Positions 3,075 to 44,457 of a stretch of 64,000 nt of DNA are shown in pieces. Location: positions 132,825-196,824 of the forward strand of contig NZ_JAHEHX010000002.1 of the NCBI RefSeq assembly GCF_024639685.1. The letters are read 5' to 3'. A model generated the notes under the pieces. It had not been told where the DNA came from and made no database searches. It saw only the letters and a list, made by a program, of their open reading frames with translations. Position 1 is the stretch's first letter; the number at the start of each line of letters is the position of its first letter. The stretch comes from Polaribacter sp. Lineage in GTDB: Bacteria; Bacteroidota; Bacteroidia; Flavobacteriales; Flavobacteriaceae. Position numbers and translations under genes: made by a program.

Positions 3075-4841
3075 ATGAAAAACTTATTAGCCAACATATC
3101 AAATCCTTCAGATTTAAGAAAACTGAATTTAAGCGAACTTCCAGAACTTGCGAAAGATCTGAGAGCATTTATTATTGATATTGTTGCTACTAAAGAAGGT
3201 CATTTAGGTGCAAGTTTAGGAGTTGTAGAGCTAACCATTGCATTACATTATCTATTTGACACACCTAATGACTTATTGGTTTGGGATGTAGGTCATCAAG
3301 CCTATGGGCATAAAATATTAACGGATAGAAAAAGTGTTTTTCATACCAATAGACAATTTAACGGAATTGCTGGCTTTCCTTCGAAACAAGAAAGTAATTT
3401 TGATACTTTTGGAGTAGGACATTCCTCTACTTCTATTTCTGCAGCTCTTGGTATGGCTATAGCCTCAAATTTAAAAGGGGAAACAGAGAAACATCATATT
3501 GCTGTTATTGGTGATGCTTCTATTGCAAGTGGAATGGCTTTTGAAGCTCTGAACCATGCAGGTGTTTCTAAGGCAAATATTCTAATTATTTTAAATGATA
3601 ATGCAATTGGCATAGACCCTTCTGTAGGTGCTTTAAAAGAGTACTTAACTCGAGTAAAATCAGATAAAAAACTAGCAGCTCAAAACAACATTATTAAAGC
3701 TTTAAATTTTAATTATTCAGGTCCTGTAGATGGTCATAATTTACCAAAATTATTGTCTGAATTAGAACGACTAAAAAAAGTTAAAGGCCCTAAGTTTTTA
3801 CATGTTATCACTACAAAAGGTAAGGGTTTACAGAAAGCTGAAGAAGACCAAATTACTTATCATGCCCCTGGAAAATTCGACAAGATTTCTGGAGAGCGAT
3901 TAGAGAAGGTAGACAGTTTGTTTACTAAATATCAGGATGTATTTGGTAAAACTATAGTAGAATTGGCCAAAGAAAATATCAAGATAGTAGCAATTACACC
4001 TGCAATGTTAACTGGTAGTTCTTTAAAATTGATGATGCAAGAAATACCTGACAGAACTTTTGATGTTGGTATTGCAGAGCAACATGCAGTTACACTTGCT
4101 GCAGGAATGGCTACACAGGGTTTAGTGCCTTTTTGTAATATTTATTCCACTTTTTTACAAAGAGCGTACGATCAAGTAATACATGATGTTGCCTTGCAGA
4201 ATTTACCTGTAATATTTTGTTTGGATAGAGCTGGTTTGGTTGGTGAAGATGGTGCAACACATCATGGAGTTTTTGACATTGCTTATTTAAGATGCATACC
4301 CAACCTCATAATTTTCGCTCCAAGAAACGAAATTGAATTACGTAACATATTATATACTGCTCAATTAGGCTTAGAACAACCAATTGCTATAAGATACCCA
4401 AGAGGTTACGGAAAAAATAAAGATTGGCAACAACCTTTTTCTAAGATTGAAATTGGTAAAGCTGTTACTTTAAAGCAAGGTGATGAAATTGCTATACTTT
4501 CTATTGGAACAATAAGTGATAATGTAACACAGGCTATATATTTAGCTCAAAATAAAAAGTCTTTAGCACATTTTGATATGCGATTTATAAAACCCCTTGA
4601 TAAGGAATTGTTAAATCATATTTTTAGTAATTTCTCTAAAATAGTTACTGTAGAAGATGGCACAATCACAGGAGGTTTTGGTTCATCAATAGTAGAATAT
4701 GCAGCTAAAAATAACTTTAAAAATAATATACAAATCGTTGGTATTCCTGACGATTTTATAACTCATGGAAGTATCTTAGAACTACAAAAAGAAGTTGGCT
4801 TAGATAGTAATTCTTTGGCCAAGCTTTTCTCTAAAACATAA
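3075..4841 (+). CDS. dxs: 1-deoxy-D-xylulose-5-phosphate synthase
   Basis: GHLGASLGVVEL, WDVGHQAY, GHSSTSISA, GIAEQHA, DRAGLVGEDGATHHG; ATG at 3075 preferred over TTG at 3051. Confidence 0.97.
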   Translation: MKNLLANISNPSDLRKLNLSELPELAKDLRAFIIDIVATKEGHLGASLGVVELTIALHYLFDTPNDLLVWDVGHQAYGHKILTDRKSVFHTNRQFNGIAGFPSKQESNFDTFGVGHSSTSISAALGMAIASNLKGETEKHHIAVIGDASIASGMAFEALNHAGVSKANILIILNDNAIGIDPSVGALKEYLTRVKSDKKLAAQNNIIKALNFNYSGPVDGHNLPKLLSELERLKKVKGPKFLHVITTKGKGLQKAEEDQITYHAPGKFDKISGERLEKVDSLFTKYQDVFGKTIVELAKENIKIVAITPAMLTGSSLKLMMQEIPDRTFDVGIAEQHAVTLAAGMATQGLVPFCNIYSTFLQRAYDQVIHDVALQNLPVIFCLDRAGLVGEDGATHHGVFDIAYLRCIPNLIIFAPRNEIELRNILYTAQLGLEQPIAIRYPRGYGKNKDWQQPFSKIEIGKAVTLKQGDEIAILSIGTISDNVTQAIYLAQNKKSLAHFDMRFIKPLDKELLNHIFSNFSKIVTVEDGTITGGFGSSIVEYAAKNNFKNNIQIVGIPDDFITHGSILELQKEVGLDSNSLAKLFSKT

Positions 4842-8920: not shown

Positions 8921-9343
8921 TTATCGAGGTATATCATCCATAGAAATTTTTCTAACAATTGCATATTTAGCATAATTAGTTTTATTCTTCTTCTTATATG
9001 AAAGAACAACTTCATTTGCCTTTAATTCAAATGGAAATTCTACATTCTCAATTAAAGTCAATTCTTTATTGATACTTCCAGAAATACTAAAAGTATCTTC
9101 ATTAACTTTAGAAGGTATAATTTGATTTCTAAAATAAATAGCCAATAGCTTAATCTTAGCAGTATCAAATTGATTGAAATTCAAATTTACTTGAATATAA
9201 GTATCCTCATCTGCAATTGCTGGTGAAATTTCTTTAAAAAAACCTTCATTTAATTGTAACTTGTTTTCTTTTACTAAGCTAAAATCTTGCGACTTACACC
9301 CCATCAAAAAAACAACCAGAAAGCAAGAAAATAAGATTTTCAT
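8921..9343 (-). CDS. Hypothetical small lipoprotein, 140 aa
   Basis: VVFLMG-C lipobox; 4 nt downstream of the T9SS gene. Confidence 0.75.
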   Translation of the reverse strand: MKILFSCFLVVFLMGCKSQDFSLVKENKLQLNEGFFKEISPAIADEDTYIQVNLNFNQFDTAKIKLLAIYFRNQIIPSKVNEDTFSISGSINKELTLIENVEFPFELKANEVVLSYKKKNKTNYAKYAIVRKISMDDIPR

Positions 9344-34927: not shown

Positions 34928-35281
34928 TTAATCGTTGTTTACAGCTACTTTAGAATCAGGCTTCCATACATTCACTGAAGCAATTGCATTACTTTCGTAA
35001 TTAATTTCTTTTAAAGAATCCGCTGTCCATACGAACCACTTACCTATTTTTTTTCCATTATTATAATACGCTAATTGTACTTTGTTTCCATTCTTATCAA
35101 AACGAACCCATTCTCCTGTCAATTTTTTATCCTTAAAAAAACCTTGGGTTTTTATAGAACCATCTTTATAATAATAAGTTGCTTTCACTAAATCACCATG
35201 AGCGTTAAAAGTCGGTTTTTGTTCTTGAGCATACCCTATCATCGTAAGGCTAAATATCATTATTGCTAAAATATTTTTCAT
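34928..35281 (-). CDS. Secreted MORN-variant repeat protein, 117 aa
   Basis: Signal peptide; YYYKDGSIKTQGFFKDKKLTGEW and YYNNGKKIGKW repeats. Confidence 0.8.
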   Translation of the reverse strand: MKNILAIMIFSLTMIGYAQEQKPTFNAHGDLVKATYYYKDGSIKTQGFFKDKKLTGEWVRFDKNGNKVQLAYYNNGKKIGKWFVWTADSLKEINYESNAIASVNVWKPDSKVAVNND

Positions 35282-41862: not shown

Positions 41863-42765
41863 CTATTGTAAAAATTTATCAATTACATATATTACTTGTA
41901 CAATGGTAATGTATACAACACTAGCCAGCATCAATTTTCGTGCATCTGTGTTTTGTTCTGTTTTATGTAGTTTAACTCCAAAGTAAAGCATCATTAAACC
42001 TAACAATGCTACTATCACAGCAGTAGCTGGGTGGATAAAAAACTCTCCCGATACTTTTAATACAGGGATTACAGAAACTAAAATCATAATCACTGTATAA
42101 AAAATAATCTGCTTTACAGCATTTTTATCTTTAGTGTCAGTTGGTAACATCATAAAACCTGCTTTTTTGTACTCTTCGTATTGCAACCAACCAATGGCCC
42201 AAAAGTGAGGAAATTGCCAAAAAAATTGAATCATAAATAAAACCCCTGCCTCTATTCCAAACTGATTAGTTGCTGCTACCCAACCTAACATAAAAGGAAT
42301 TGCTCCAGGAATTGCGCCCACAAAAACAGTTAACGGCGTAACAGACTTTAACGGAGTATATACAGAAGTATATAAAAATATAGAAATTGCTCCAAATAAA
42401 GCTGTTTTTGGATTTATAGAATATAAAATTGTTAGCCCTAAAATTGTAAATAACAACGCAATAAACATCGCAAAATTCACAGTCATTCTTCCTGTTGGAA
42501 GCGGCCTGTTTTTTGTTCTAAACATTAAGGCATCCGTATCTTTTTCAATAACTTGATTAAATGCATTTGATGCTCCCACCATAAAAAAGCCGCCCAAAGA
42601 AAGCAGTAAGAGTACTTTTAGACTAACTATATCTACAGCCAATAAATATCCAGCAACAGAAGAAAAAACAACACTTAGAGACAAGCCAACTTTAGTAAGT
42701 TGCTTTAAGTCTGACAAAAGTGTCTCTTTTGCTATTTTTGTATCTGAAATTACAGTCGAATCCAT
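41863..42765 (-). CDS. cyoE: Protoheme IX farnesyltransferase (heme O synthase)
   Basis: NQVIEKDTDALMFRTKNRPLP, YTPLK, WQFPHFWAI; TATCTTTG box at 42783-42790. Confidence 0.96.
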   Translation of the reverse strand: MDSTVISDTKIAKETLLSDLKQLTKVGLSLSVVFSSVAGYLLAVDIVSLKVLLLLSLGGFFMVGASNAFNQVIEKDTDALMFRTKNRPLPTGRMTVNFAMFIALLFTILGLTILYSINPKTALFGAISIFLYTSVYTPLKSVTPLTVFVGAIPGAIPFMLGWVAATNQFGIEAGVLFMIQFFWQFPHFWAIGWLQYEEYKKAGFMMLPTDTKDKNAVKQIIFYTVIMILVSVIPVLKVSGEFFIHPATAVIVALLGLMMLYFGVKLHKTEQNTDARKLMLASVVYITIVQVIYVIDKFLQ

Positions 42766-42845
42766 ACTCTGAGAATATTTTACAAAGATATTTGATAATT
42801 ATGAATTTACCACATAATTATGTGGTTTTGTGGTGTTAAAAACAT

Positions 42846-42917
42846 AAAAAAACCCACTCAAAGATGAGTGGGAAAATTGCTATGAAAAAGAAAAAGTGTG
42901 ATTTATTCAACCACTTT
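42846..42917 (-). ncRNA. Candidate ~70-nt small RNA (5' stem, single-stranded seed, terminator)
   Basis: TATATTTA box (42926-42919), AAAGTG..CACTTT stem, TTCTTTTTCATAGCAATTTT, then CCCACTCA-tctt-TGAGTGGG-T7. Confidence 0.5.
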
Positions 42918-42933
42918 GTAAATATAATTATAA

Positions 42934-43521
42934 TTATTCAGAAAAATCTTTATAATTTTCTTTTTTTGAAAAATCTTTTGCTTTTTTAAACTTAACAAAG
43001 GTGTTTAATGAAAAAAGTTCTTGTTTGTTTTTAGAGTAATTGAAAAGGGAATCTAAAGAGTACTTTGAATTTTTATTAAATCTTAGGCGAAGTGTGTCTT
43101 GATTAAACTGAAAAAACCCTCTATAAACGCATCTTTGATTCTTTTGAATAATTTTTAACTCAAAATAATTATCTGAAAATAATGTCAATCTTCTTGTATC
43201 CTTGGAAGTCTTAGGAGTTTCAAAAAGGTTTATTTTTGTTTTAAAAAAGTTCTCACCATGATAATTTAAAAATAAGGACAAAACTATACAATAAATCACG
43301 GCTATTAGAACAGGCCTATAATTAAAAAGTTCTTTTTTTAGAACTATATTGTAAAAATTATTGAATAAAATAACAAGAAAAACGACTATAAAACAGATAA
43401 TAAAACCTGTAATAATTAACAATTCTTTTACTCCAAAACAATAGTCACCAAAATGTATAAGGAACGTTAAAGGCAGTAAAGCTATTGAAATCAGTAATAA
43501 ATATCTCTTTCTAATTTTCAT
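42934..43521 (-). CDS. Hypothetical membrane protein
   Basis: 195-aa ORF with three N-terminal hydrophobic segments; no motif recognised. Confidence 0.65.
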   Translation of the reverse strand: MKIRKRYLLLISIALLPLTFLIHFGDYCFGVKELLIITGFIICFIVVFLVILFNNFYNIVLKKELFNYRPVLIAVIYCIVLSLFLNYHGENFFKTKINLFETPKTSKDTRRLTLFSDNYFELKIIQKNQRCVYRGFFQFNQDTLRLRFNKNSKYSLDSLFNYSKNKQELFSLNTFVKFKKAKDFSKKENYKDFSE

Positions 43522-44387: not shown

Positions 44388-44420
44388 AAAATAAAGTCAT
44401 TATGCTAGCATAATGACTTT
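44388..44420 (-). terminator. Terminator-like perfect 28-bp palindrome after leuS
   Basis: AAAGTCATTATGCT|AGCATAATGACTTT at 44393-44420, followed by ATTTTT on minus. Confidence 0.7.
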
Positions 44421-44457
44421 AACGTATTCTTAATAACTTAGGTTAATTTAAAAAATA

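Follow-up and report, generated by a model that had tools for sequence, protein, structure and literature searches.

The minus strand of a Polaribacter sp. contig very probably carries a gene for a small regulatory RNA of roughly 70 nt that belongs to an apparently undescribed family found in about nine of ten genera of Flavobacteriaceae and in their phages. The gene lies at positions 42846-42926 of the window, by which we mean the whole 64,000-nt stretch of DNA that was analyzed. An invariant, exposed segment of the predicted RNA is the antisense of a start codon and its surroundings, so the RNA most likely works by base-pairing, although its targets are not yet settled. A sequence-only reading of this locus had described a -7-like box, a hairpin, an unpaired 20-mer antisense to AUG-AAA-AAG translation starts and a terminator, and had inferred a trans-acting small RNA, either independent or derived from a 3' UTR, that occludes the start codons of mRNAs for secreted or outer-membrane proteins. 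What that reading observed is correct in all its elements. Its interpretation is only partly supported, as comparative evidence strongly favors a discrete small RNA with its own promoter, an exposed seed and a terminator whereas a regulon of secreted or outer-membrane proteins is not demonstrated.

The genes surrounding the locus are all encoded on the minus strand, with leuS, an enoyl-CoA hydratase gene and an ORF for a 195-aa hypothetical membrane protein (42934-43521) upstream, and cyoE (UbiA family) and two COX3-like genes downstream. The stop codon of the 195-aa ORF (42936-42934) lies 8 nt before the -7 box, leaving 7 nt of spacer, and this ORF has no terminator of its own. Consequently, the terminator of the small RNA probably also ends the transcript of this gene, and a 3'-UTR-derived form of the RNA remains possible as the sequence-only reading allowed. 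The -7 box TATATTTA occupies 42926-42919 and departs from the Bacteroidota consensus TAnnTTTG in its last base, which is A instead of G. The predicted transcript is about 69 nt (42914-42846), with the start site inferred at about 5 nt after the -7 box and the 3' end placed in the U-tract. It begins with a 5' stem-loop (GUGGUU-GAAUA-AAUCAC) at 42914-42898 in the minimum-free-energy fold, for which the longer AAAGUG...CACUUU version of the earlier reading spans 42917-42893. This is followed by the single-stranded seed ACUUUUUCUUUUUCAUAGCAAUUUU at 42897-42873, which contains the 20-mer noted earlier (42892-42873), the core CUUUUUCAUAGCAAUU (42875-42890) and a CAU at 42882-42884 that is the antisense of AUG. 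The seed is followed by the terminator hairpin CCCACUCA-ucuu-UGAGUGGG (42872-42853) and a U7 tract (42852-42846). The 81-nt stretch folds into exactly these two hairpins with the 25-mer unpaired, at -19.2 kcal/mol (z = -4.2) with 0 of 200 shuffles as stable, and a terminator scan of the region picks the same site. Two further features of the neighborhood are a perfect 13-bp palindromic hairpin (TAAAGTCATTATGC-TAGC-GCATAATGACTTTA type) at 44392-44421 between leuS and the enoyl-CoA hydratase gene, which is followed by a T-run on the minus strand and is thus a probable leuS terminator, and a perfect 18-bp palindrome, ACCACATAATTATGTGGT, which sits over the -33 region of a TATCTTTG -7 box 18 nt upstream of the cyoE start (window 42809-42826 and 42783-42790, minus strand). 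The latter is a candidate operator for the haem O synthase / COX3 operon, and the block is conserved in orthologous loci of relatives, where the BLAST alignments run through it.

The unit is not just the end of the upstream gene, and its seed is conserved in relatives. A BLAST search of the window's own genome (2.46 Mb, 30.5% G+C) returned two additional intact copies at C7:133360-133433 and C10:376658-376741, where C numbers denote contigs of this genome. The genome also has a decayed fourth copy (UUUUCAUAGCAACAA-CCACUCAA...UUGAGUGG-UUUU) at the start of a contig (C4:~150-240, minus strand). All 24 genomes of the genus-level group that were searched first had several copies at 83-98% identity, while the flanks diverge. 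When laid side by side, every copy has the same plan consisting of a TAnnTTTG box, a hairpin of variable sequence a few bases later, an invariant ACUUUUUCUUUUUCAUAGCAAUUUU(U), a CCCACUCA-loop-UGAGUGGG terminator and a U-run. A covariance model built from 14 copies (R1) matches window 42846-42920 (C19:175670-175744) at 74.7 bits (E = 1.6e-10), and the seed of this copy is identical to the consensus. With R1 we detect the family in 119 of 121 genomes of the genus-level group, at 1-16 copies each and sometimes in tandem arrays, and in 134 of 151 genera of the family (about 89%), mostly at one copy each. In contrast, it is essentially absent from other families of the order and appears to be missing from one large genus of the same family, presumably Flavobacterium, with none of 7 genomes giving a hit. 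The weaker family-level hits are genuine, as the exact 14-mer of the seed lies at their coordinates in 94 of 101 genera. Twenty of these that were read by eye show the TATATTTG box, a covarying hairpin, the invariant AAUUUUUCUUUUUCAUAGCAAUUUUU and a CCCAUCCUUAA...UUAAGGGUGGG terminator. A scan of named genomes for the exact 29-mer returned Tenacibaculum, Polaribacter, Lutibacter, Aureibaculum, Namhaeicola, Lutimonas and many Flavobacteriaceae MAGs, and the window's genome is a small-genome member of this marine group.

Several lines of comparative evidence indicate that the unit is an RNA gene. RNAalifold on MAFFT alignments did not recover the variable hairpins because the alignments were out of register, so we used a covariance-model-guided alignment of 90 copies (77 distinct). 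In this alignment all nine pairs of the 5' helix show compensatory changes, with 95.3% of cells paired against 30-41% when the partner column is slid, and with 271 cells changed on both sides against 78.5 in shuffles (0 of 500 shuffles reach the observed value). The alignment was fitted to the model, which favors the structure, but the margin is very large. The terminator helix is nearly invariant in its outer CCCAC/GUGGG pairs and covaries in its inner pairs, and a terminator plus U-tract is present in every copy. A perfect TAnnTTTG occurs at one fixed position relative to the RNA model in 76 of 83 distinct copies, while the other 7, including the copy in the window, have one mismatch. The segment UUCUUUUUCAUAGCAAUUUU is identical in all 77 distinct copies, with a mean unpaired probability of 0.93, and is also invariant in 20 single-copy members from other genera.

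The copies also reside in unrelated places. Of 120 fetched loci, about 80 lie 18-37 nt upstream of the RNase P RNA gene (rnpB), including the C10 copy of this genome (minus strand) and, for example, loci L036, L063 and L136 (L numbers denote fetched loci), while 27 lie upstream of cyoE as does the copy in the window. In the Tenacibaculum/Polaribacter/Lutibacter/Aureibaculum group one copy or a tandem array of up to five copies precedes rnpB, and in some species the rnpB -7 box is squeezed into the gap. However, rnpB adjacency is not the ancestral, family-wide locus, since none of the 20 single-copy members from other genera that were checked is next to rnpB and the linkage is specific to one clade. 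No seed-rnpB complementarity was found either, and predicted pairing with the adjacent RNase P RNA is weaker than for shuffled seeds. Given this distribution, it is very unlikely that the stretch is only the intrinsic terminator and 3' UTR of the 195-aa ORF with a chance resemblance to an antisense start site. The close stop codon, the lack of another terminator for that ORF and the mismatch in this copy's -7 box would fit such a view, but it is contradicted by units with their own TAnnTTTG box at unrelated loci, in tandem arrays, in more than 130 genera and in phages, and by a hairpin that covaries while the single strand is invariant. A type I toxin-antitoxin antisense RNA (Sib/Ibs-like) is similarly not supported. 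The opposite-strand frame (MSGKIAMKKKK...) is 41 aa here but 13 and 10 codons in the other two copies and runs through the variable hairpin, so no peptide is conserved.

Units with the same seed are also present in phage genomes. The exact 20-mer occurs in 14 IMG/VR contigs and the 16-mer core in more than 120, of which 88 matches were inspected and 19 are small-RNA-like units with a -7 box, a short hairpin, the seed and a terminator. Examples include L391:2959-3030(+), L393:1569-1649(+) and L394:1722-1791(+), as well as L417, L425, L432 and L439. The hairpins and terminators of these units are unrelated to the chromosomal ones and to each other, such that only the 16-20-nt seed is shared. The contigs encode tape-measure, portal, tail, exonuclease and integrase proteins, and in two related contigs the unit sits among structural genes. 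Retention of only the single-stranded module on foreign scaffolds is the strongest sign that this module is the functional part. The multiple copies, the tandem arrays, and matches near the ends of predicted prophage contigs, one of them beside an integrase gene, could alternatively suggest a mobile repeat or phage attachment site whose conservation reflects DNA-level spread. We consider this very improbable, as there are no terminal inverted repeats or target duplications, most genera have exactly one copy, compensatory changes keep an RNA helix, and phage copies that share the single strand but not the flanks are the opposite of what an attachment-site core or a transposon end would show.

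Analysis of what the seed could pair with gave a more complicated picture. Within this genome, RNAduplex of the seed against the start regions of 2084 crudely called genes shows no excess over shuffled seeds, with 22 sites at or below -14 kcal/mol against 16 +/- 8.7. The two partial matches within the window that the sequence-only reading had cited do lie at ORF starts (8921-9343 and 34928-35281, both minus strand) but are at chance level, since CTATGAAAA occurs 4 times in the window, counting the locus itself, against 2.0 expected. One outlier is the start of comEC (C19:83170-84042, minus strand, outside the window), which encodes DUF4131 plus Competence domains. It has a perfect 17-nt complement, AAAUUGCUAUGAAAAAG, at -21.5 kcal/mol, the best of the 2084 start regions, and its start codon sits in the loop of a hairpin, GUACCUUU...AAAGGUAC. 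Seventeen of 25 comEC orthologues in the genus-level group, in which GCUAUGAAAAAG is mostly kept, reach -15.7 kcal/mol or better, mostly by keeping GCUAUGAAA(A/G)G, a level that only about 0.5% of this genome's start regions reach. However, comEC is rejected as a family-wide target, because in 24 other genera the hairpin is often kept but the complement is not. The comEC frame in this assembly is also truncated, at 292 aa against about 675 aa in all relatives, which reflects a frameshift, a pseudogene or an assembly error.

Across 100 other genera the exact anti-seed 14-mer occurs 160 times, of which about 104 are the small RNA genes themselves. The roughly 56 extra sites compare with 14 for the reversed pattern, but that control ignores the abundance of ATGAAAAAG starts, and a rough, context-aware estimate from this genome gives 10-36 expected. 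Outside a second small RNA described below there are roughly 44 extra sites, which is within or just above this expectation. Of the 52 extra sites that were fetched, 18 are first ATGs of long ORFs and 15 of these have signal peptides or lipoboxes. They belong to unrelated families, including sulfatase, FecR, a LacI-type regulator, thioredoxin-like and SIMPL proteins, with lipoprotein gene starts scattered among them. Pairing at AUG-AAA-AAG start regions fits the perfect complements found, but a global preference for secreted-protein start sites could not be shown. MKK starts are typical of signal peptides, so any seed containing CUUUUUCAU will “find” them, and a secreted or outer-membrane regulon remains plausible but unproven. 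A third recurrent context for the anti-seed occurs in L285, L313, L282 and L266 from other genera, where a shared CGCAACCTTT...TTTGCATCTA motif, possibly an alternative-sigma promoter, is followed about 20 nt later by UUGCUAUGAAAAAG, with an overlapping MKFFK... start following in two cases. In viral contigs the 16-mer anti-seed is mostly at chance level (5 gene starts among 88 matches), and no anti-seed start sites were found inside the fetched phage regions. Nevertheless, a D12-class N6-adenine DNA methyltransferase gene in a prophage contig (L397, IMGVR_UViG_2833707121_000001, ATG at rc position 3183) starts with a perfect 20-nt complement of the seed (AAAAUUGCUAUGAAAAAGAA).

At least 10 of the fetched sites are the apical loop of a second, also apparently undescribed small RNA of about 100 nt, as at L273:1265-1378(-), L295:1262-1374(-), L299:128-247(+), L271:1262-1375(-) and L316-L345. 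This predicted RNA has an upstream palindromic, operator-like TTGTTTAA-N13-17-TTAAACAA, a -7 box, a long 5' hairpin whose stem differs between genera and whose loop keeps AAUUGCUAUGAAAAAG, an invariant UUAUUGGUUAGGUUGUUU and a GC-rich terminator, as judged from single-sequence folds only. Its 3' motif is present in 33 of 101 genera, about 20 of which carry the anti-seed loop with a predicted duplex of -15 to -26 kcal/mol, and it has no Rfam match. One possibility is that this second RNA is the main partner, with one RNA sponging the other and start-codon matches in mRNAs being incidental. This loop is the only complement conserved across many genera, and all 21 genomes with the second RNA also carry the family described here. 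We regard this view as unlikely, however, because the second RNA is in only about a fifth to a third of genera and is absent from this genome and its genus, even though this genus has the most copies and keeps the seed invariant.

Taken together, we favor, with a probability of roughly 0.6, a model in which window 42846-42914 is one of three intact paralogous genes in this genome for a non-coding RNA that is made from its own Bacteroidota-type promoter, ended by an intrinsic terminator, and acts in trans by antisense pairing. In this view the exposed segment would bind RNAs that carry (A)AUUGCUAUGAAAAAG, which in mRNAs is a start codon with its -5 to +9 context, and covering it should block 30S binding in a phylum that mostly initiates without a Shine-Dalgarno sequence. 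The comEC mRNA would be the best candidate target in this genome, while in other genera the loop of the second small RNA looks like a start-site mimic and is a possible decoy or partner. Sequence comparison establishes the gene architecture, the family, the structure and the invariance and accessibility of the seed, whereas transcription itself, the pairing and any regulatory outcome are inferred, with transcription resting on the promoter and terminator alone. No single target explains why 20-25 nt are invariant across more than 100 genera, which is more than most antisense seeds need. It therefore remains conceivable, although doubtful, that the U/C-rich single strand is a protein-binding site that titrates or recruits an RNA-binding protein for which phage copies would compete. 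The lack of genome-wide target enrichment and the retention of only the single-stranded module by phages fit such a site as well as a seed. On the other hand, this view does not predict perfect 17-20-nt complements in comEC, the methyltransferase start and the conserved loop of the second RNA, and no candidate protein or chaperone was found, as searches of this genome detected no RRM_1, Hfq, ProQ or CsrA homologue.

A more tentative possibility is that CUUUUUCAUAGCAAUU is a portable “anti-start-codon” module that host chromosomes across Flavobacteriaceae keep invariant on a core small RNA, that phages carry on unrelated scaffolds to tap into the same control point, and that a second chromosomal small RNA displays a start-site mimic (AAUUGCUAUGAAAAAG) in a hairpin loop as a decoy or partner. 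Together these would form a family-wide RNA-RNA circuit acting on Shine-Dalgarno-less translation initiation that phages hijack. Post-transcriptional control in Bacteroidota is poorly known outside gut Bacteroides, and there are no characterized small RNAs for the marine Flavobacteriaceae that dominate algal-bloom carbon turnover and include fish pathogens. The breadth of the family, a seed that is among the longest invariant ones known to us, and its copying by phages suggest that it is probably a core regulator, and the antisense of AUG plus its context provides a concrete handle on how translation initiation is controlled in bacteria that mostly lack Shine-Dalgarno pairing. We treat the family as undescribed because a scan of the whole window against Rfam 15 gave nothing at gathering score, because weak hits down to E = 10 on 42500-43300 (STnc480, Ref84, GadY and others) are resemblances between terminators, and because topical literature searches found no description and no paper holding the seed or its complement as text, although subscription-only literature lay outside the search. 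Rfp18 and the other Rfp small RNAs of F. psychrophilum (PMC9723704) are also different, as none of their sequences in Table S8 contains the seed and Rfp18 has four hairpins. Absence from that published list, and from the large genus noted above, may explain why the family has gone unnoticed.

The closest known system is FopS (“family of paralogous sRNAs”) and GibS of Bacteroides thetaiotaomicron (PMC11697453, PMC7366714). These are multicopy small RNAs of 65-75 nt from the same phylum that are driven by the canonical Bacteroidota promoter, and the family described here similarly has paralogues, three intact here and up to 16 in relatives, with a conserved -7 box. FopS comprises 14 paralogues with a single-stranded seed and a terminator, and was shown to pair next to the start codon of susC mRNAs and block translation, which is the mechanism proposed here, with RbpB counteracting it (PMC11697453). 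However, no FopS or GibS match to the Rfam model that the authors say they deposited was obtained at E up to 10 on 42500-43300, a conserved, covarying hairpin precedes the seed in every copy whereas the FopS seed is at the very 5' end directly followed by the terminator hairpin, and the seed is different and includes the anticodon-like CAU. In addition, the host family is Flavobacteriaceae and not Bacteroidaceae, no link to susC was found, and a six-frame search of this 100%-complete genome found no RRM_1 (PF00076) match, the class to which RbpB belongs, while the control search finds it in B. thetaiotaomicron. Sibling or multicopy seed-defined small RNAs of Proteobacteria and Firmicutes (OmrA/OmrB, Qrr1-5 and LhrC1-5) likewise have several paralogous copies, sometimes in tandem, an identical seed on scaffolds that are otherwise free to vary, a Rho-independent terminator and pairing at translation initiation regions. 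Those families depend on Hfq or other known chaperones and are confined to much narrower taxa, while this family spans a whole bacterial family with a 20-25-nt invariant stretch and also occurs on phage genomes. Finally, prophage-encoded small RNAs that copy or counteract host core small RNAs, such as AgvB (anti-GcvB) of EHEC prophages, and RNA sponges such as SroC/GcvB, resemble the present case in that phage or prophage genomes carry short promoter-to-terminator units that interact with or imitate a conserved host module, and in that a second RNA carries a sequence complementary to the seed. Here, as inferred from sequence alone, the phage units carry the same seed as the host RNA and would be mimics, while the complementary RNA is chromosomal and presents the complement in a hairpin loop that looks like a start site.
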